Source of the DNA: an uncultured Lachnospiraceae bacterium
GTDB lineage: Bacteria; Bacillota; Clostridia; Lachnospirales; Lachnospiraceae
NCBI GenBank assembly: GCA_946612455.1
Contig: CAMOER010000008.1
Location: 24,934 to 88,933 of the forward strand
Direction of reading: 5' to 3'
DNA length: 64,000 bases
In this document: piece after piece, positions 516-64,000 of the stretch
Layout: each line of letters starts with the position of its first letter
Position numbering within the stretch: the first letter of the stretch is position 1
Notes under the pieces: generated by a model
Told to the model about the DNA's origin: nothing
The model's database searches: none
Seen by the model: the letters and a program-made list of their open reading frames with translations, nothing else
Program-made: the position numbers and the translations under genes

Positions 516-1720
516 GCGGACTGTATATCATCGGAGCCGGTGCAGCGGGCCTTGCAGCTTCGATCGCAGCGGCCGAAGCCGGCGCACATCCGGTCCTTGT
601 GACCGGCCGTACCGCACCGGGGAAAAAGATCCTCGCGACCGGGAACGGACGCTGTAATTTCACCAACCTCCGGATGAAAAAGGACTGCTATTATTCTTCC
701 TGGACGGACGGCCCGATGCAGGTCATCCGATCCTTCGGAAGCGAAGATACCATCCGGTTTTTCAGAAAACTCGGACTGCTTTCCTGCGACAGGGACGGCT
801 ATGTCTATCCTCGCAGTATGCAGGCGGCTTCCGTGAGAGATGCACTCCTTGCAGGGATCCGCCGGCAGGGTGTGCAATTGATCGAAGAGGATCCGTTGTC
901 TGCGCTTACCGCATCGGATGACGGCGGATTTGGTCTTCAGCTGGCATCCGGCAGGATCCTGCAGGCTGACTGCGTGATCATGGCTGCCGGCGGCTGTGCC
1001 GCACCTTCGACCGGATCGGACGGAAGCGGACTCCGGATCGCGGAGAGACTCGGCCTGAAGGTAATCCCGGCGGTTCCCGCGCTGACCGGACTGCTCTCGG
1101 ATGATCCCTGCTGCCCGGTCTGGCACGGCGTCAGAACGCATGCGCGGGTCACTGTCTGCGACAGGAACGGAAAGCCGCATTCCGATACCGGGGAAGTGCA
1201 GCTGATGAAAAACGGCATTTCCGGCATTCCGGTATTTCAGATCAGCAGGCATACTGCCTACGTTCTTATGAAATCCGCTGTCTCGGAGGCGGTCATCGAT
1301 TTCATGCCTGAGGAGGATTCGGATCTTCAGGAGACACTCCGGATCCCGGATCTGACGATTTCTGAAGTCTTAAAGGGCGCTTTTCCGGCGAAGCTCGCGG
1401 AGGTATTCCTGCAGAAACTCGGCGAAAGGCCGGAAACGAAAGCTGCCCGCGTTAATTCCCGAAAACTGTTTCATCTGATCCATTCCTTCCGGATCCCGAT
1501 CACCGGTGTGCGGGGCTTTGCCGATGCGCAGGTCACCGCCGGCGGAGTCGATCTGCGTTCCGTGGATACGGAAACGATGGAATCGAAGAAATTCCCGGGA
1601 CTGTATTTTGCCGGTGAAATACTGGATGCAGACGGGATCTGCGGCGGCTATAACCTGCAGTGGGCTTTTGCCACCGGCGTTCTTGCCGGTACGGCCGCCG
1701 CTTCCAAAGTACGATCATGA
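512..1720 (+). CDS. NAD(P)/FAD-dependent oxidoreductase, HI0933/YhiN (BaiN-like) family
   Basis: N-terminal dinucleotide-binding GAGAAGL motif, a C-terminal GGYNLQWAFATG-like segment, and about 400 aa, all typical of this family. Confidence 0.75.
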   Translation: MSGLYIIGAGAAGLAASIAAAEAGAHPVLVTGRTAPGKKILATGNGRCNFTNLRMKKDCYYSSWTDGPMQVIRSFGSEDTIRFFRKLGLLSCDRDGYVYPRSMQAASVRDALLAGIRRQGVQLIEEDPLSALTASDDGGFGLQLASGRILQADCVIMAAGGCAAPSTGSDGSGLRIAERLGLKVIPAVPALTGLLSDDPCCPVWHGVRTHARVTVCDRNGKPHSDTGEVQLMKNGISGIPVFQISRHTAYVLMKSAVSEAVIDFMPEEDSDLQETLRIPDLTISEVLKGAFPAKLAEVFLQKLGERPETKAARVNSRKLFHLIHSFRIPITGVRGFADAQVTAGGVDLRSVDTETMESKKFPGLYFAGEILDADGICGGYNLQWAFATGVLAGTAAASKVRS

Positions 1721-3527: not shown

Positions 3528-4988
3528 ATGAAGACCTTTCGAGCAGCTGCCTGCGCGGCAGTGATGGGACTGATGATACTTGTTTTTTCCGTACCGGCAT
3601 TCGGCGCAGATCTTTATCCGCTGGCAGACGGAAAGAGCATGGTGTATACCTATCCGATAAAATCCGGCAGTATTACCGTCTATTCTGATGAGAATCTGTC
3701 TGTGCAGACGGAGAAAATCAAGGGAAGCAAGACATATGCCGCGATCATGAAACAGTCCGGATCCGCCATCTACGCAAAATACAAGTACAACGGGAAACTG
3801 AAGGAAGGCTGGTTCAAGGCCTCGGTTTTCCTTTGTCAGCCGTCATACGAGTCTGCAGATGCCTGTACAAGGTATGATGCAAAAGTCATCCGTACCGTCA
3901 AAAAGAAAAAATCCTTCGGCTCGATCCCCGCGTTTTCCAAACTGCAGATCGTCGGGGAATATAAGGGATACCGGCAGATTGTCTTCCAGTACGGAAAGAA
4001 ATACCGTATGGGCTGGGTCACCGAGAGTGTCTATAATAATAAGATCAAGCTGTATGACGGTTCCGAAAAGCAGATCATGGCCGATGGGACCTACACGCTC
4101 GCACCGAAGAGCGGAAAAGGGATGCTTGTGACTTCGGAGAACGGCAAAGTGGCGCTGGCAGAAGCGGATAAGAACGCAAAACAGAAGTTCGTGTTCGAAT
4201 ATTATACGAGCGATTATTTCCGTATCAGCAGCTCCGCTGACAGTTTGTACCTGACCTATAATGCATCCGGAGAAGGCGATCCTGTCATCATGGCTGCGAA
4301 ATCTGCAGATCCGGATGATAAAACACAGCTCTGGCATATGGAACGCTACGGCGCCTATTATTATCTGAAGAATGCTGCAGCCGGCCAATATCTGTATGCG
4401 GATGACACTTTCTGCCTGAAACCGGCCGGCGGCAATGATCACAAGAGATTCCGGGTCGTCATGGCAGACGGAAAGAACAAGAATCACTGGAGGGTCTTCT
4501 GCCAGTACGAACCGGACTGGGGCGGTAAGAAGTACGGAAGGACAAACAACATGGCAGCTTCCGCCTGCGGCATCCTGTCCCTGACCAATACGGTCTATGC
4601 GCTCAACGGACAGTATATAGATCCGATGAAGACGGCAGCCTTCGCAGTGAAGAAGAAATACAGAGTCGAGGGCAGCGGCACGAGCTACAAGGTCTTTGCA
4701 GCCGCAGCAAAGCAATTCGGCAAGACGTACGGCTTCGAGTATCTGGGTGCCACGACCAGTTTCAACGTACTGAAAAAGCATCTGAAGAAAGGGGAGACGG
4801 CGATCGCCTATGTGCCCGGTCATTATATGGCCTGCGTAGCCTATAAAGGCGGAAAATACCTGATGCTGGAATCCGCGTACGGCAAGAAGCGCGGAACGAC
4901 CCCTTACGGAGACTGGGTGACCGCCTCCCGGCTGAAGAGCGGCGCGATGAAATCGAAGAACTTTTTCGTCTTTAAAGCCACGGACTGA
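3528..4988 (+). CDS. secreted multidomain protein: SH3b-like repeats, ricin-type lectin-like segment, C-terminal C39/papain-like cysteine peptidase-like domain
   Basis: Signal peptide MKTFRAAACAAVMGLMILVFSVPAFGA. GWV/GWF SH3b-like motifs. QKFVFEY and QLWHMERYG (QxW-like) lectin motifs. C-terminal Cys (ASACGILS) and His (GHYMACVAY) spaced as in C39-like peptidases. Confidence 0.55.
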   Translation: MKTFRAAACAAVMGLMILVFSVPAFGADLYPLADGKSMVYTYPIKSGSITVYSDENLSVQTEKIKGSKTYAAIMKQSGSAIYAKYKYNGKLKEGWFKASVFLCQPSYESADACTRYDAKVIRTVKKKKSFGSIPAFSKLQIVGEYKGYRQIVFQYGKKYRMGWVTESVYNNKIKLYDGSEKQIMADGTYTLAPKSGKGMLVTSENGKVALAEADKNAKQKFVFEYYTSDYFRISSSADSLYLTYNASGEGDPVIMAAKSADPDDKTQLWHMERYGAYYYLKNAAAGQYLYADDTFCLKPAGGNDHKRFRVVMADGKNKNHWRVFCQYEPDWGGKKYGRTNNMAASACGILSLTNTVYALNGQYIDPMKTAAFAVKKKYRVEGSGTSYKVFAAAAKQFGKTYGFEYLGATTSFNVLKKHLKKGETAIAYVPGHYMACVAYKGGKYLMLESAYGKKRGTTPYGDWVTASRLKSGAMKSKNFFVFKATD

Positions 4989-5167: not shown

Positions 5168-6607
5168 ATGACAAAATTTGACCTGGATATGATCGACATC
5201 ACGATGCCGCCGCCTGAATATGAACCCATGCGGCAGTACTATTATATGCGTCTCTGCAGGGATATTATCTGCAGAATGCAGACGGAAAAAGGAAGACCGC
5301 TCACCTGCTGCGTCAACACCTTCGGCTGCCAGATGAACGCCCGGGATTCGGAAAAGCTGCTCGGCGTGCTGACAGCGGTGGGGTTTACGGAAAGCGAAGA
5401 TGAGAATGCCGATCTGGTCCTCTACAATACCTGTACGGTCAGAGAAAATGCCAATGTCCGTGTCTACGGACGCCTGGGGCATCTGCATCACTATAAAAAG
5501 AAGAATCCCGATATGCTGATCGGCCTGTGCGGCTGCATGATGCAGGAACCGAAGGTCGTGGAAAAGCTCAGATCCTCCTATCCTTTCGTGGACCTGATCT
5601 TCGGCACCCATAATGTCTATAAGCTGGCAGAGCTTCTGTACCGCGTTCTGGCAGAAAAAACAAGAGTCATTGATATCTGGGACAAAGCGGATGCGATCGT
5701 GGAGGATCTTCCGGTCAACCGGAAATATTCCTTCAAATCCGGCGTCAATATCTCTTTTGGCTGCAACAATTTCTGCACCTACTGCATCGTTCCTTACGTC
5801 AGAGGCCGGGAACGCAGCCGCGCACCGGAGGATATCCTGAAAGAGATCCGGCAGCTGGCCGATGACGGCGTGATCGAGATCATGCTGCTCGGGCAGAATG
5901 TCAATTCCTACGGCAAGGATCTGGAGACGCCCATGACATTTTCCGAACTGCTCCGGGAAGTGGAGAAGATCGAAGGGATCCGAAGGATCCGGTTCATGAC
6001 GTCCCATCCGAAGGATCTTTCGGATGAACTGATCGCTGTCATGAAGGACAGCAAAAAAATCTGCAGGCATCTGCATCTGCCGCTGCAGTCGGGAAGCACA
6101 AAGCTCCTTGCGGCCATGAACCGCAGATATACCAAAGAAGATTATCTGAACCTGGCACTGAAGATCCGGCGAGAGATCCCGGACATTTCCCTGACAACGG
6201 ATATCATTGTCGGCTTCCCCGGCGAGACGGAAGAGGATTTTCAGGATACGCTGGACGTCGTCCGCCAGGTCCGTTATGAGAGCGCATTCACCTTCATCTA
6301 TTCGCCCCGCACAGGCACGCCGGCCGCGAAGATGGAGCAGGTACCGGAAGCTGTTGTCCATGAACGCTTTGACAGACTTCTTGCCGAAGTGCAGGAGATC
6401 GCGAAGGAAGTTTGCTGCAGGGATACCGGAAAGATAATGGAAGTGCTGGTCGAAGAGGTCAATGAGAAGGATCCTTCACTGCTGACCGGCAGACTGTCGA
6501 ATCATATCATGGTCCATTTCCCGGGATGTCCGGCGCTTGTCGGCAGGCTGGTCAATGTGAAGCTGACGTCAGCGCACGGATTCTATTATCAGGGAGAAAT
6601 GGTCTGA
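5168..6607 (+). CDS. miaB: tRNA (N6-isopentenyl-A37) methylthiotransferase MiaB
   Basis: UPF0004 N-domain (NTFGCQMN), radical-SAM CNNFCTYC motif and C-terminal TRAM region. The ATG at 5168 follows an AAGGA RBS; the track start at 5159 is a TTG. Confidence 0.9.
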   Translation: MTKFDLDMIDITMPPPEYEPMRQYYYMRLCRDIICRMQTEKGRPLTCCVNTFGCQMNARDSEKLLGVLTAVGFTESEDENADLVLYNTCTVRENANVRVYGRLGHLHHYKKKNPDMLIGLCGCMMQEPKVVEKLRSSYPFVDLIFGTHNVYKLAELLYRVLAEKTRVIDIWDKADAIVEDLPVNRKYSFKSGVNISFGCNNFCTYCIVPYVRGRERSRAPEDILKEIRQLADDGVIEIMLLGQNVNSYGKDLETPMTFSELLREVEKIEGIRRIRFMTSHPKDLSDELIAVMKDSKKICRHLHLPLQSGSTKLLAAMNRRYTKEDYLNLALKIRREIPDISLTTDIIVGFPGETEEDFQDTLDVVRQVRYESAFTFIYSPRTGTPAAKMEQVPEAVVHERFDRLLAEVQEIAKEVCCRDTGKIMEVLVEEVNEKDPSLLTGRLSNHIMVHFPGCPALVGRLVNVKLTSAHGFYYQGEMV

Positions 6608-6655: not shown

Positions 6656-9304
6656 ATGATGACACCGATGATGCAGCATTATCTGGATACGAAAAAAGAG
6701 TATCCGGACTGCATTTTATTCTACAGGCTCGGCGATTTTTATGAAATGTTCTACGAGGACGCCATCACGGTCTCCCGGGAACTTGAACTGACGCTGACGG
6801 GCAAGGACTGCGGCATGCCGGAACGTGCGCCCATGTGCGGCGTGCCGCATCATGCAGCCGACGTCTATATCAGCAAGCTCGTGGAACGGGGATTTAAAGT
6901 CGCCATTGCAGAGCAGACGGAGGATCCGAAGCAGGCAAAGGGACTGGTACGCCGGGAAGTCGTCCGGATCGTGACGCCCGGGACGAACATGGCCCCGCAG
7001 GCGCTGGAAGAAGGCAGAAACAATTACATCATGTGCATTGCTGCGCAGGACCGGGAATTCGGACTTTCCGCAGCAGATGTTTCTACGGGCGAATTTTTTG
7101 CGACGGAAGTGACCTCTGTCGGAGAACTGTTCGATGAGATCTATAAATTCATGCCGTCCGAGATCATCGTAAATGAAGCCTTTATGATCCGCGGCGTGGA
7201 TACAGATGAACTGAAGAACCGCTATCATATGATGATCTCCGTGCTGCCGGCTTCGTATTTTAAGGAAACGGACTGCGTGAAACGGCTCTGTGATCATTTC
7301 GATGTCTATTCCTATGAAAGCCTGGGCTTTAAGGACCGCCACGCGGCAGGTCTTGCTTCCGGCGCTATGCTCATTTATCTGGATGAGACACAGAAGATCG
7401 CGCTCACGCATATTACCGGGGTCAGCCTGTATGACCGTGGGAAATATATGATCATCGATACGTCCACCAGAAGAAATCTGGAACTGACCGAGACGCTGCG
7501 GGAGAAGAAGAAGCACGGGACGCTTCTGTGGGTCCTGGACCGGACGAAGACCGCCATGGGCGCCAGACTCCTGCGTACCATTATCGAACAGCCGCTCCTC
7601 ACAAAGGAGGAGATCATCCGTCGGCAGGATGCGATTCAGGATCTTCTGGACGATCTGATCACCAGAGAGGAGCTGCGGGAATATCTGGCTCCTGTCTATG
7701 ACCTGGAGCGTCTGATGGGAAGGATCACCTTCCATACGGCCGGTCCCAGAGATCTGATCGCTTTTAAGACATCCCTGGAAATGCTGCCGCATATCAGAGG
7801 ACTGCTGCAGGGCTTTGAGAGTGCCCTGCTTACAGAGCTTCATGAGGATATGGATGATCTCACAGATATCTGCGCAATGATCGGCGCAGCGATCAATGAT
7901 GATCCGCCGCTGTCCTCGAAGGAAGGCGGCATTATCAAGGCCGGATATTCCGAAGAAGCCGACCGGCTCCGGGAGGCAAAAACAGAGGGTAACGGCTGGC
8001 TGAAAGAGCTCGAAGAAACAGAAAAAGAGCGCACAGGCATCAAGAACCTGCGTATCAAATACAACAGAGTATTCGGCTATTATCTGGAGGTCACCAACTC
8101 CTTTAAGGATCTGGTACCGGAGGATTATATCCGGAAGCAGACGCTGACGAATGCCGAACGGTACACGACGCCGCGGCTGAAAGAACTTGAGAACGTCATT
8201 CTGGGCGCCGATGAAAAACTGACCGCGTTGGAATATGACATTTTCTGTGAGATCCGGGAGCATATTTCGGGACAAGTCGCACGTGTTCAGAAGACAGCCC
8301 ATGCGGTTGCCATGCTGGATGTGCTGCTGTCGCTGGCGCATGCCGCAGAGCATGAGCATTTCGTGCGGCCGAAGATCAACGACAAAGGAAGCATCAATAT
8401 CATCGGCGGACGTCATCCGGTGGTTGCCAAAATGATGAAGGATGAGCCGTTCGTACCGAACGATACGAAGCTGGATCTGAAGGAGCACAGGATCGCCGTC
8501 ATCACCGGACCGAACATGGCCGGTAAGTCCACGTACATGCGGCAGACAGCGCTGATCGTGCTGATGGCGCAGACCGGATCCTTTGTCCCGGCCGATAAGG
8601 CGGACATCGGGATCAGCGACCGGATCTTCACTCGCGTCGGCGCATCGGACGATCTCGCTTCCGGGCAGAGCACCTTCATGGTGGAAATGACGGAAGTGGC
8701 CAACATCCTGCGGAATGCTACCAGGAATTCCCTTCTGATCCTGGACGAGATCGGCAGGGGCACGAGCACATTTGACGGCCTGGCGATCGCGTGGGCGGTC
8801 GTGGAGCATATCAGTCAGCCGAAGCTGATCGGCGCGAAAACGCTTTTTGCGACGCATTATCATGAACTGACGGAGCTGGAAGGTCATCTTCCCGGCGTGA
8901 ACAACTACTGCATTGCCGTCAAGGAGCAGGGAGATACGATCGTTTTCCTGCGTAAGATCGTTGCCGGCGGCGCGGACAAGAGCTACGGTATCCAGGTCGC
9001 AAAGCTGGCCGGCGTTCCCGGACAGGTGATCGAGAGAGCGAAGGAACTCGTCGCGGAACTGTCCGATGCGGATATCTCGGCACGTGCTAGAGAAGTCGCA
9101 GAGTCGGGGGTCACCGACAGGAAAAAACACGTTCCGAAACCGGATTACGTCGACAGGAACCAGCTTTCGCTGTTCGATACGAACAGTGACGACGAGATCC
9201 TGAAGGAGATCGACAGCCTGGAGCTTTCCACGATGACACCGATCGATGCACTGAATACACTGTATTCGCTGCAGGCTAAAAGAAAGAACCGCTGGCAGGG
9301 ATAA
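6656..9304 (+). CDS. mutS: DNA mismatch repair protein MutS
   Basis: N-terminal TPMMQHYL..FYRLGDFYE mismatch-binding motif. Walker A GPNMAGKST. DEIGRGTST motif. Confidence 0.95.
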   Translation: MMTPMMQHYLDTKKEYPDCILFYRLGDFYEMFYEDAITVSRELELTLTGKDCGMPERAPMCGVPHHAADVYISKLVERGFKVAIAEQTEDPKQAKGLVRREVVRIVTPGTNMAPQALEEGRNNYIMCIAAQDREFGLSAADVSTGEFFATEVTSVGELFDEIYKFMPSEIIVNEAFMIRGVDTDELKNRYHMMISVLPASYFKETDCVKRLCDHFDVYSYESLGFKDRHAAGLASGAMLIYLDETQKIALTHITGVSLYDRGKYMIIDTSTRRNLELTETLREKKKHGTLLWVLDRTKTAMGARLLRTIIEQPLLTKEEIIRRQDAIQDLLDDLITREELREYLAPVYDLERLMGRITFHTAGPRDLIAFKTSLEMLPHIRGLLQGFESALLTELHEDMDDLTDICAMIGAAINDDPPLSSKEGGIIKAGYSEEADRLREAKTEGNGWLKELEETEKERTGIKNLRIKYNRVFGYYLEVTNSFKDLVPEDYIRKQTLTNAERYTTPRLKELENVILGADEKLTALEYDIFCEIREHISGQVARVQKTAHAVAMLDVLLSLAHAAEHEHFVRPKINDKGSINIIGGRHPVVAKMMKDEPFVPNDTKLDLKEHRIAVITGPNMAGKSTYMRQTALIVLMAQTGSFVPADKADIGISDRIFTRVGASDDLASGQSTFMVEMTEVANILRNATRNSLLILDEIGRGTSTFDGLAIAWAVVEHISQPKLIGAKTLFATHYHELTELEGHLPGVNNYCIAVKEQGDTIVFLRKIVAGGADKSYGIQVAKLAGVPGQVIERAKELVAELSDADISARAREVAESGVTDRKKHVPKPDYVDRNQLSLFDTNSDDEILKEIDSLELSTMTPIDALNTLYSLQAKRKNRWQG

Positions 9305-9323
9305 AGGATAAAACGGAGGCATC

Positions 9324-11339: not shown

Positions 11340-12313
11340 TGAACAGGAAAGAGACATTTTCCGAAACAGAAAAGAGACCGCTGATCATTCTGGCCGGACC
11401 GACTGCCGTCGGCAAGACGGAATGCTCGCTTCTGCTGGCTGAAAAACTGGGCTGCGAGATCATCAGCGCAGATTCCATGCAGGTCTACAGAGGAATGGAT
11501 ATCGGCACGGCCAAGGCGCTTCCGGAGGAACGGCTCCGTGTGCCGCATCATCTGATCGATGTGTGTGATCCGACGGAAGAATTCAATGTTGTCCGATATA
11601 AAGAGGAAGCATCCGCCGCGATCACGGATATCTGTTCGCGCGGGAAGATCCCTCTCCTGACGGGCGGTACGGGCTTCTACATCCAGGCAGTCCTGAAGGA
11701 TACGGACTTTACGGAGAATGCGAGCGATCCGGATTACCGGGAACAGCTGGAGGCCATGGAAGCTGCGGATCCGGGCTGCCTGTACCGGATGCTTCTGGAG
11801 CATGATCCGAAAGCGGCAGAGGAGATCCATCAGAACAATATCAAGCGCGTTGTCCGTGCGCTGGAATTTTTCCATGCATCCGGCGAACGCATTTCAGATC
11901 ATAATGCACGGGAGAAAGAGCGGCAGTCACCGTATAAGTTCCTTTTCATCGTACTTGAGAGAGACCGCGGGGAACTGTACCGCCGCATTGACAGGCGGGT
12001 AGATCTCATGATGGAAGAGGGGCTGACGGAGGAAACGCGGAAGCTGAAAGAAGCCGGCTGCACAAGAAACATGGTCTCCATGCAGGGCCTCGGATACAAG
12101 GAAATGCTCGCATATCTCGATGGGGAATATCCCCTGGAGGAGACCGTGCGTCTTATTAAAAGAAATACCAGACATTATGCGAAACGTCAGCTGACGTGGT
12201 TCAGACGCACACAGGAAACCGTCTGGCTGAACTGTGCTGGTTTTGCTGATGTGGATCAGCTGAGCGGTCATATTATATCGCTCTGGGAAAAGAAAAAGAA
12301 AGAGCAGGAGTAA
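11336..12313 (+). CDS. miaA: tRNA dimethylallyltransferase MiaA
   Basis: P-loop GPTAVGKT and SADSMQVYRGMDIGTAK motif. Overlaps the mutL stop. Confidence 0.9.
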   Translation: MMNRKETFSETEKRPLIILAGPTAVGKTECSLLLAEKLGCEIISADSMQVYRGMDIGTAKALPEERLRVPHHLIDVCDPTEEFNVVRYKEEASAAITDICSRGKIPLLTGGTGFYIQAVLKDTDFTENASDPDYREQLEAMEAADPGCLYRMLLEHDPKAAEEIHQNNIKRVVRALEFFHASGERISDHNAREKERQSPYKFLFIVLERDRGELYRRIDRRVDLMMEEGLTEETRKLKEAGCTRNMVSMQGLGYKEMLAYLDGEYPLEETVRLIKRNTRHYAKRQLTWFRRTQETVWLNCAGFADVDQLSGHIISLWEKKKKEQE

Positions 12314-24927: not shown

Positions 24928-24941
24928 CGAAAATATGTTCG
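24928..24941. promoter_or_regulatory. LexA (Cheo) box 1 upstream of the LysM gene
   Basis: CGAAAATATGTTCG has 1 mismatch to the Firmicute consensus CGAAC-N4-GTTCG. Confidence 0.7.
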
Positions 24942-62221: not shown

Positions 62222-62377
62222 TATGTGACGTATGCGGTTGGGAATATGATGAAGAAGCCGGTTTCCCGGATGCCGGAATCGAGCCCGGAACGAAATGGGA
62301 AGATATCCCGGATGATTTCGAATGTCCGCTCTGCGGCGTAGACAAGAGCCAGTTTTCAGAACAGTAATCGGTAAGAA
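62222..62377 (+). CDS. rd: rubredoxin
   Basis: A 51-aa ORF missing from the track because it is under 60 aa: [51 protein letters not shown]. It has two CxxCG knuckles and an AGGAGG RBS. Confidence 0.9.
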
Positions 62378-62394
62378 AAAGCTCAAGGGGACAG

Positions 62395-62472
62395 GCACCG
62401 CGGTTAACCCGCGGTGCCTGTCCCCTTGGGTTAACCGCGGTTCCTGTCCTTGGGTTCTTTTATTATCAGTAT
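62395..62472. terminator. bidirectional terminator with a duplicated 3' arm
   Basis: 19-bp perfect stem AAGGGGACAGGCACCGCGG / CCGCGGTGCCTGTCCCCTT. A second near-copy of the 3' arm (GGGTTAACCGCGGTTCCTGTCCTTGGG) follows, then TTCTTTTATT. Confidence 0.75.
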
Positions 62473-62981
62473 TCTCCGAGCCATCTGGCCGAAGTCTCAG
62501 CCACGGCCTCTCCGGCCTGCAGGCTTGCCGGCACATTCAGCACCCGCTGGTTCCTGCTGCCGCGGAAATTCAGCTCCAGGCTCTTCTCTTCCATCAGGAA
62601 CGGTCCGTCGACAAGCACATCGATCAGCGACAGCAGTTTTTTCTGCGCTTCCGTCCCGTTCTGATACAGTTCTTCAAAGGTGAATCCCGTATAGGAAGCC
62701 ACTTCATAGCCTGCTTCTTTTAAAAGAACAGCCAGCTTTGCCAGTCCCTCCGCCTGCGTGAAAGGCTCTCCGCCGGAAAACGTGACGCCCCGGCAGAGCG
62801 GATTGCTCTTTACGATCTGAAGCAGCGTCTCCTCTTCCATCTCCTTACCGCCTGCGTAATCCCAGGTCTCTGGATTGTGACAGCCGGGGCAGTGATGCGG
62901 ACATCCCTGCACATAAAAGGCCGTGCGAATGCCCGGCCCGTCAACGATGGAATCTTCAGCTATTCCCGCCAGCTTAAGCAT
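62466..62981 (-). CDS. nrdG: anaerobic ribonucleoside-triphosphate reductase activating protein NrdG
   Basis: DGPGIRTAFYVQGCPHHCPGCHNPETW radical-SAM cluster motif, 171 aa. Confidence 0.9.
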   Translation of the reverse strand: MLKLAGIAEDSIVDGPGIRTAFYVQGCPHHCPGCHNPETWDYAGGKEMEEETLLQIVKSNPLCRGVTFSGGEPFTQAEGLAKLAVLLKEAGYEVASYTGFTFEELYQNGTEAQKKLLSLIDVLVDGPFLMEEKSLELNFRGSRNQRVLNVPASLQAGEAVAETSARWLGEY

Positions 62982-63135
62982 GGGCGGTAAGACCGTGCTT
63001 TACGCGGTCATGCTCTTCGGCGCGCTTTGCGTCGTTCCACTTATCCATGGTTCCTACAAGATATCCGGTGATGCGGCGGATCCGCTCAAATCCTACGCCC
63101 TGTCCGAGTTTCTCGTTATAGCTCTGTTCGCTCAT
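62974..63135 (-). CDS. stand-alone NrdD C-terminal glycyl-radical peptide (53 aa)
   Basis: Hand translation of the minus strand gives MSEQSYNEKLGQGVGFERIRRITGYLVGTMDKWNDAKRAEEHDRVKHGLTAHA. It contains the class III RNR glycyl-radical motif RRITGYL. It has its own AAGGGAG RBS 8 nt upstream, overlaps the nrdG start by 8 nt, and is in a different frame from the nrdD body. Confidence 0.7.
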   Translation of the reverse strand: MSEQSYNEKLGQGVGFERIRRITGYLVGTMDKWNDAKRAEEHDRVKHGLTAHA

Positions 63136-63175
63136 GATATTGATCTCCCTTCGTATGTGTATTGTTTTCTTCTCT

Positions 63176-64000
63176 TTACTGAATTCCCTGGAATGCAGGC
63201 ATTTCAGGATACATCTTTCTTAATTTCTCGACCAGCTCCTGCGGGATCTGCTCGCCTTCGCGTCTTCCGCAGCGGGGGCAGACATCGCCGATCACGCCGA
63301 CGTAACCGCAGACCGGATCTCTGTCTACAGGATGATTGATGCTGCCGTAACCGACGCCGCAGTCATGCATCCAGCGAACGACCTGCTCGAAAGCCTCGAT
63401 ATTCTTGGAGGTATCGCCGTCCATCTCGACATAGCTGATATGACCGGCGTTGCAAAGCGCATGATACGGTCCTTCCAGACGGATCTTGTCATAGGCAGAG
63501 ATCGGGAACCAGACCGGAATATGGAAGCTGTTGGTATAGTACTCTCTGTCGGTGATCCCGGGGATCTTGCCGAAGCGCTGCTGGTCCTGACGGATGAACT
63601 TTCCGGACAGGCCCTCGGCCGGTGTGGCAAGCAGGGTGAAGTTCATCTTCATCTCCTGCGATTTTTTGTTGCAGAAATCTCTCATATGGCCGATGATCTC
63701 CAGGCCCTTCTGCTGGATCTCCTCGCTCTCGCCGTGGTGCTTGCCGTACAGTGCTGTCAGCGTCTCCGCCAGGCCGATGAAGCCGATGGAAAGCGTTCCG
63801 TGCTTCAGCACATCGCGGATCTCGTCGCTGTTGGCCAGCGTGTCGGAATCCAGCCATACGCCCTGTCCCATCAGGAACGGGAAGTTATAGACATGCTTCG
63901 CAGCCTGGATCTCGAATCTGTCGAGCAGCTGCTGGGCCGTCATATTGAGCATCCAGTCAAGCTTCTCATAGAAGACCTTCTCGTCATGATCGGCTTCGAG
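63176..64000 (-). CDS. nrdD: anaerobic ribonucleoside-triphosphate reductase NrdD, large fragment (5' end outside the window; lacks the glycyl-radical tail)
   Basis: Class III RNR motifs (FTLLATPAEGLSGKF, NSFHIPVW, GHISYVEMDG) and a Zn-ribbon-like VCGY...CPRCG. The ORF stops at 63176, before any RxxGY motif. The frame stays open to the window edge. Confidence 0.88.
   Translation of the reverse strand, partial: LEADHDEKVFYEKLDWMLNMTAQQLLDRFEIQAAKHVYNFPFLMGQGVWLDSDTLANSDEIRDVLKHGTLSIGFIGLAETLTALYGKHHGESEEIQQKGLEIIGHMRDFCNKKSQEMKMNFTLLATPAEGLSGKFIRQDQQRFGKIPGITDREYYTNSFHIPVWFPISAYDKIRLEGPYHALCNAGHISYVEMDGDTSKNIEAFEQVVRWMHDCGVGYGSINHPVDRDPVCGYVGVIGDVCPRCGRREGEQIPQELVEKLRKMYPEMPAFQGIQ

Follow-up and report, generated by a model that had tools for sequence, protein, structure and literature searches.

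Close to one end of the 64,000-nucleotide stretch analysed here (the window; positions 24,934 to 88,933 of contig CAMOER010000008.1, assembly GCA_946612455.1, from an uncultured Lachnospiraceae bacterium) lies what is probably a functional class III (anaerobic, glycyl-radical) ribonucleotide reductase (RNR) built of two polypeptides, a large and a small chain that are predicted to be active as an obligate complex. The large chain (P0121) holds an ATP-cone, the catalytic barrel and a zinc ribbon and lacks the glycyl-radical loop; the RxxGY motif of that loop is carried by a separate product of 53 amino acids. As the large chain comes without a glycine loop, the small protein would be obligate and not a spare copy. 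Together with nrdG, which encodes the activase, the two genes form one operon (Table 1). A first-pass annotation had already noted that the NrdD frame ends before any glycyl-radical motif, that a 53-codon open reading frame (ORF) with its own ribosome-binding site follows 40 nt downstream in another frame, and that this ORF encodes the glycyl-radical tail of NrdD and overlaps nrdG by 8 nt, suggesting coupled expression. All of this holds: the frame of the small ORF is offset by +1 relative to that of nrdD-large, and nrdG, which lacks a Shine-Dalgarno sequence (SD) of its own, starts at 62981 within the end of the small ORF.

The boundary between the two ORFs is also where profile and structure-sequence matches show a clean break. 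On NF005497 (746 positions) the large ORF matches positions 1-714, with 1056 bits against a cut-off of 764, and the small ORF positions 711-744; on Pfam NRDD (PF13597, 562 positions) the respective matches are 1-531 (591.6 bits) and 533-562, that of the small ORF also being above the cut-off; and in the alignment with the NrdD chain 8p23 of Prevotella copri (P. copri) they are 5-707 and 707-738. The large chain additionally matches the Pfam ATP-cone, and the small protein has no match to PF01228, the domain of the pyruvate formate-lyase (PFL) type. The nrdG product scores 146.3 bits on TIGR02491 (cut-off 126.1) and has the cluster motif CPHHCPGC, of the CX3CX2C type.

The P. copri enzyme provides the frame in which the break can be placed. 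Its chain consists of an ATP-cone (residues 1-91), an NxN flap (111-122), a barrel (123-671) and a glycyl-radical domain (676-739), the last of which comprises the zinc site, the buried Gly711 loop and a tail over the top of the barrel, and is reported to be highly mobile (PMC11226230). The large chain retains the finger-loop cysteine, the flap, the cysteine of the first strand and the formate-type motif: by alignment, its MGCRTRV, NAN flap, TTCTQ and RGNLSF correspond to Cys416, the NxN flap, Cys171 and Asn435 of P. copri, while the triphosphate-binding HxHD motif reads YIHD at residue 165 of P0121 and HIHD in both P. copri and the homologue from genome G025. Gly24 and Tyr25 of the small protein correspond to Gly711 and Tyr712. 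The break thus defined falls inside the glycyl-radical domain, between the zinc site and the Gly711 loop, leaving the zinc ribbon on the large chain and the glycine hairpin with the C-terminal helix on the small protein, which runs from a variable head through G.GV.F and the hairpin RIRRITGYL to that helix.

The same break is found in relatives. In a family sample of 151 genomes, one per genus, nine encode an NrdD of this type (defined as NF005497 above its cut-off), and in eight of the nine, this genome included, the large chain stops at NF005497 position 711-715 and a separate small ORF is present; only the NrdD of G148 is fused. The eight junctions differ in their details: spacers range from -44 to +173 nt, frame offsets of 0, 1 and 2 occur, TAA, TAG and TGA all serve as stops, and in four of the eight (G061, G082, G045 and G015) every linking frame is blocked by stop codons. 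Every small ORF has its own GGAGG-like SD and ATG. The small gene is tightly coupled in translation to nrdG: in six of the eight genera the two genes overlap by 8-17 nt at the start of nrdG, which has no ribosome-binding site of its own.

Aligned across the linker, orthologues are contiguous where the gene is fused: CGR.EGE is followed directly by.G.GFERIRRITGY in the Pelosinus loci, or by an equally short link in G148. In split forms, in contrast, EGE closes the conserved part of the large chain and G.GV.F opens that of the small protein, and between them stand a tail of about 20 residues, a stop, a spacer, a start and about 8-12 variable residues. The tail pattern L..L+K.YP..P is common to all eight split genera and absent from fused relatives. 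Ratios of nonsynonymous to synonymous substitution (dN/dS), computed at saturated synonymous sites (dS above 1.2), are 0.05 for the core of the small ORF, 0.04 for the zinc-ribbon region and about 0.37 for the extra tail; purifying selection acts strongly on the small ORF. At the end of many split-type tails (for example in G035, G045, P0127, P0143 and P0159) stand pairs of Cys, as CC, CGC or CxC, which recall the C-terminal redox cysteines of class I/II reductases, whereas the tail in this window contains no Cys. The two pieces need not even be neighbours: on metagenome contig L024, 2.6 kb with five genes, two of them on the other strand, lie between the large gene (6914-9307) and the small one (11940-12107, 55 aa), and the latter directly precedes nrdG. 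This separation shows two independent genes, of which the small one is linked to the activase gene. A PHROG search of the genes between the L024 pieces gave no matches, and the contig could not be assigned to a phage or mobile element.

Sequences of the locus also turn up in other assemblies and libraries. In public assemblies, 42 contigs encode the exact 53-aa sequence and nine the exact 761-aa sequence. An independent contig from a sheep-gut RNA library, 98% identical over 63144-63333, has both the stop and the spacer free of indels, and further RNA-library contigs, derived from relatives, have about 90% identity over the conserved glycine-loop codons. An independent DNA contig, X4, spans the junction with +5/-1 nt indels in the spacer.

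A search of 5.8 billion protein clusters yielded at least 7993 clusters of free-standing relatives of the small protein, mostly of 53 aa. On reference contigs, with one genome per species, 561 stretches encode such a relative; among the best 79 typeable ones, 69 have it in a stand-alone frame of <130 aa, seven in a frame of 136-167 aa and three, from Pelosinus and one uncultured bacterium, in fused form. Judged by record titles, the carriers are uncultured or metagenome-assembled Lachnospiraceae, Oscillospiraceae, Faecousia, Treponemataceae, Fibrobacter, Muribaculaceae, Bacteroides, Desulfovibrio, Mailhella, Anaerobiospirillum and Bacilli, and one cultured organism, Allofournierella massiliensis DSM 100451. 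In public annotation the mini-gene is called a "hypothetical protein" or, as in RefSeq, bears the name of the full enzyme. For the large chain we took the 150 nearest representatives of 50%-identity clusters, 102 of which could be typed: in 54 the chain closes with a tail that lacks the glycine motif, and the other 48 are fused. In a quick maximum-likelihood tree of 104 C-terminal cores the split and fused forms are intermixed, so that 16 state changes are needed, at least three of them forced by well-supported branches; by an approximately unbiased (AU) test the data are compatible with a single split clade (p = 0.236). The first-pass annotation had considered both a genuinely two-piece NrdD and a recent split or assembly error, and it is the former that is favoured by a break conserved across genera and phyla, by the varied junctions and by the low dN/dS of the small ORF.

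The first-pass annotation had further remarked that the first Cys of the usual zinc site appears replaced, leaving three, and the alignment bears this out: 8p23 has RCLDCGY where the large chain here has RDPVCGY, giving a site of the form DxxC...CxxC (D715, C718, C728 and C731). Asp occupies this position in 44 of 53 split clusters and in 10 of the 44 fused clusters of the clade, the closest fused relatives included. As the substitution occurs in both split and fused clusters, it is a trait of the clade that is unrelated to the split and has no bearing on decay, and the Asp may still bind metal.

Several variants of the arrangement were met among the relatives. There is a longer stand-alone version of the glycine protein, in frames of about 100-150 aa with an extra conserved N-terminal domain ahead of FERIRRITGY, at L068, L087, L091, L096, L100 and L106 (Veillonellaceae, an Oscillospiraceae metagenome-assembled genome (MAG), Anaerovibrio, Selenomonadaceae and Megamonas). 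Many large-chain relatives are 900-1780 aa long (e.g. P0124-P0197) and match in two to four stretches, which together point to inteins (Pfam Intein_splicing and also HNH matches), with a recurrent insertion point near query residue 455. At L025 (3836-7106) nrdD is divided further, the piece with the ATP-cone having 224 aa and the other 747 aa, and 17 kb around it revealed no small glycine ORF. The cultured Eggerthella phage EL753P1 (L026, OP172808.1) has a split-type nrdD of 952 aa whose tail lacks the glycine motif, and the small ORF downstream (5941-6149, where the deposit annotates a 42-aa hypothetical protein) has a 5-nt insertion, TGACC, exactly between the RRI and TGY codons; possible readings are an error, a broken gene and recoding. 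On another metagenome contig, L020, which bears an intein-containing split-type nrdD, the small ORF (3560-3643) reads GKGVGFNRIRRVTG and quits its frame right at the radical glycine, near the contig end, which may reflect an intron or other insertion at the glycine codon.

For a structural model we used the G025 homologue, because both its ORFs share one frame while those of the window differ by +1; read through TAG and TAA it gives a single chain (P0274), which was folded with 65 relatives. The prediction has a mean pLDDT (predicted local distance difference test score) of 92.9 and a pTM (predicted template modelling score) of 0.90; its junction segments are listed in Table 1. The best match in the Protein Data Bank (PDB) is P. 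copri NrdD chain 8p23_B, and the NrdDs of phage T4 and Streptococcus thermophilus also match. The model agrees with the canonical docking of the glycine hairpin.

For the two-piece reductase the following division of labour is proposed. The 761-residue chain would supply the ATP-cone, the ten-stranded barrel with its thiyl-radical cysteine and the zinc ribbon, and the 53-residue protein the piece that normally comes after the zinc ribbon, namely the buried beta-hairpin with the radical glycine and a short C-terminal helix. NrdG would take a hydrogen from Gly24 of the small protein, whether free or already docked, and the hairpin would lie inside the barrel beside the finger-loop cysteine, as in single-chain NrdD. 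The extra helical tail of the large chain may help to hold or recruit the small protein. Because oxygen cleaves the chain at the radical glycine, oxygen damage might require only the 53-residue part to be remade, which would be a speculative benefit of the layout. One may go a step further and view the small protein as a detachable, exchangeable radical cofactor that is activated by NrdG off the enzyme, possibly aided by their co-translation, loaded into empty large subunits and replaced after oxygen has cleaved it at the glycine; this we put forward as a tentative idea that is more doubtful than not.

Several points weigh against the two-piece enzyme as we describe it. The RNA-library contigs touch only parts of the locus and possibly contain DNA, so that neither co-transcription nor translation is shown by them. 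The structural model derives from homology and includes a tether that is artificial, and the head of the small protein is modelled at low confidence (pLDDT 51-60). Two canonical single-chain NrdDs are also present in this genome, the genomes of G015 and G045, discussed below, are incomplete, so that having no other reductase is not proven for them, and the oxygen-repair advantage is speculation.

An alternative explanation that shares the mechanism, and differs only in what it means, is that of a neutral gene in pieces: an insertion, perhaps of a mobile element, would have separated the glycine loop from the zinc ribbon, the products would still assemble, and the layout would persist and travel with the operon although it is no better than the fused one. 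Homing endonucleases, introns and inteins often target RNR genes, and inteins are present in many of the relatives (representatives of 900-1700 aa with Intein_splicing and HNH matches). The intermixing of split and fused forms on the tree would also fit such a history. In phages, nrdD is the RNR gene most often split, with six cases catalogued and attributed to introns, inteins or unexplained breaks (Dwivedi et al. 2013, PMC3653736); unlike the genes described here, these are broken at other places, and neither a conserved glycine-loop mini-subunit nor a function was described for them. Other split RNRs that are known are the class II NrdJa/NrdJb of Pseudomonas aeruginosa and the class I NrdA-a/NrdA-b of Aeromonas phage Aeh1, split by mobE, in which two consecutive genes likewise make one catalytic subunit. 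In Aeh1 the extra junction tails are essential for activity (PMC3045599), and the split NrdDs also carry junction tails (in eight of eight split genera) that their fused relatives lack. However, those two systems belong to other RNR classes and have other break points, whereas here the detached piece is the radical-bearing element and the split is widespread in bacteria, not limited to one lineage. Moreover, unlike in Aeh1, there is no endonuclease gene at the junction, and no remnant of an endonuclease or element was seen there or in the seven relatives. One would also have to reconcile neutrality with a split form that is at least as common as the fused one among near relatives (54 vs 48 clusters), that is kept where no other reductase was detected (G015 and G045) and whose conserved coupling of the small gene to nrdG suggests an organised system. 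On balance we regard the neutral reading as rather unlikely, although the layout may reflect either an oxygen-repair advantage or a tolerated gene in pieces.

Pyruvate formate-lyase has autonomous glycyl-radical "spare part" proteins, GrcA/YfiD in E. coli and Y06I in phage T4, and the first-pass annotation had likened the small protein to the former. As a concept the likeness stands: the 53-aa protein is free-standing, has its own SD and a radical glycine loop, and is presumably activated by the enzyme's own activase and inserted into a barrel without a working loop. It fails in two respects, since GrcA, as a duplicate, rescues a full-length enzyme that oxygen has cleaved whereas the large chain here never has a loop, and since the small protein is homologous to the NrdD tail (PF13597), not to the PFL tail (PF01228). 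Could the small protein nevertheless be a spare for full-length NrdDs after oxygen damage, with the large chain inactive or in another role? This genome, a MAG of 81 contigs that is 87% complete, does encode two single-chain E. coli-type NrdDs of 722 aa (NF006732 above cut-off), which share 85% identity and may represent either true paralogues or a second strain binned into the MAG; one of them has its own NrdG. Furthermore, a true spare-part layout does occur in a phylum sample, where G398, G528 and G369 combine a free-standing glycine protein with a same-type NrdD that is fused. However, the small protein matches the NF005497-type tail (RIRRITGYLVGT) and not the CRRVCGYLGTNYF tail of the two full-length paralogues, and the large chain keeps all its active-site motifs, under selection. 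In G015 (94% complete) and G045 (86%), moreover, Pfam NRDD matches consist of the split large and small pieces only, with no full-length NrdD, and no class I/II large-subunit domain was found in either. Since the split pair is the only reductase detected in them, both organisms appear to depend on the two-piece enzyme. We thus consider a spare-part role for the small protein very improbable. In the present genome, where no class I or II reductase was found (at 87% completeness), the split enzyme is one of three class III reductases, and because of the two canonical NrdDs it is not required to explain viability.

The remaining explanations deserve next to no credence. Programmed recoding, by frameshift or stop read-through, would yield a single fused chain, and here the small frame is indeed open for 41 nt ahead of the large stop, so that a +1 shift is possible, while in G025 the two ORFs share a frame and are separated by TAG and TAA; yet the stop-blocked linking frames of G061, G082, G045 and G015 (spacers 89-173 nt), the use of all three offsets and stop codons, the SD and ATG on every small ORF, and the L024 pair with its intervening genes on the other strand led us to reject recoding on the strength of the eight junctions and that separated pair. 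An assembly or sequencing error, or a recent pseudogene, might be suspected in a fragmented and incomplete MAG, but this branch of the first-pass annotation is refuted by the exact copies on other contigs, by the indel-free sheep-gut contig and by a break conserved with low dN/dS in hundreds of genomes; with junctions so variable, one systematic error common to all public assemblies is excluded as well. A split intein, considered on account of the Cys-rich ends of many large-subunit tails, was rejected, as tail and head together make about 40 residues, far too short, and the window's tail has no Cys.

Table 1. Features of the split nrdD locus (window positions), of the single-chain nrdD genes of the same genome (contig positions) and of the folded chain P0274 (residues)
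Feature	Position	Strand	Remarks
nrdD-large, 3' part	63176..64000	minus	continues past window edge; full product P0121, 761 aa
Stop codon TAA of nrdD-large	63178-63176	minus	24 residues past CPRCG zinc-ribbon motif
Zinc-ribbon ligand positions D715, C718, C728, C731 of large subunit	63269..63319	minus	Asp for first Cys; alignment to 8p23
Extra 24-residue C-terminal tail of large subunit	63179..63250	minus	pattern L..L+K.YP..P
40-nt spacer between TAA of nrdD-large and ATG of small ORF	63136..63175	minus	
Shine-Dalgarno AAGGGAG of small ORF	63151-63145	minus	9 nt upstream of ATG at 63135
Small-subunit gene, 53 codons	62974..63135	minus	product P0122, 53 aa; PF13597 match; alignment to 8p23
Radical Gly24 codon of small ORF	63066-63064	minus	within RIRRITGYL
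nrdG, radical-SAM activase, 171 aa	62466..62981	minus	TIGR02491 match
Probable intrinsic terminator of operon	62370..62428	minus	perfect 20-bp stem (62384-62428), then U-run
Full-length E. coli-type NrdD genes of this genome (G000)	C69:1451-3619 (L018), C63:1987-4155 (L019)		short contigs
P0274, tail of large chain	737-747		helix; pLDDT 76-85
P0274, artificial link and head of small protein	751-780		low confidence; pLDDT 51-60
P0274, glycine hairpin	782-794		beta-hairpin; pLDDT 83-84
P0274, C-terminal helix	800-808		helix; pLDDT 92

As to the surroundings of the operon, a TTGACA and two palindromes resembling NrdR boxes, about 31 nt apart, lie upstream (outside the window, L107:1496-1620, minus strand), and NrdR is encoded in the same genome. 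No Rfam riboswitch family was found upstream of nrdD at or above threshold. The hairpin after nrdG has a folding energy of -51.8 kcal/mol (z = -7.4). Its arms (62384-62467) are copies of a short GC-rich repeat of about 30-65 nt that has about 39 further sites on many contigs of the genome, often as inverted pairs, and resembles a REP-like element. Neighbouring genes encode a beta-eliminating lyase family protein, rubredoxin, isocitrate dehydrogenase and an aldo/keto reductase.

With the single-chain NrdD/NrdG systems, of which the closest solved example is P. copri NrdD (PDB 8P23 and related entries), the split enzyme has in common the ATP-cone, the NxN flap, the barrel with its finger-loop cysteine, a formate-type active site (RGNLSF), the zinc ribbon, the RITGY loop with the C-terminal helix, and an adjacent NrdG. 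It differs in that the chain is cut inside the glycyl-radical domain, that is, within what corresponds to residues 676-739 of P. copri, and in having a large chain with 24 additional residues at its tail, about 12 variable residues at the N-terminus of the small protein, and Asp as the first zinc ligand. To our knowledge, every characterised glycyl radical enzyme has its radical glycine on the catalytic chain, and the only separate radical proteins known are GrcA/YfiD and Y06I, both spares for pyruvate formate-lyase. A 2026 review names the formate lyases as the only class of glycyl radical enzymes with such separate proteins (PMC13450708), while others have speculated that they might exist for further enzymes (PMC8683613). 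In our literature search no account came to light of a class III enzyme that is split in this way, with its glycine loop on a protein of its own.

If the two-piece reading is true, this would be the first obligate two-piece glycyl radical enzyme, natural and widespread, in which the radical loop is a separate protein of 53 residues. It would also make several questions accessible to experiment, such as how an activase gains access to a glycine that lies deep in the barrel, whether activation of the loop is possible away from the enzyme, and how anaerobes recover from oxygen damage; Allofournierella massiliensis DSM 100451 and other cultured carriers offer an experimental entry point. For annotation, it means that large subunits without the motif are easily mistaken for broken genes. 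Should the small protein indeed prove to be an exchangeable cofactor, strict anaerobes that carry it would possess a cheap, built-in repair cycle for their reductase, and other genomes, those of phages included, would have a handle by which to supply or withhold the radical part.

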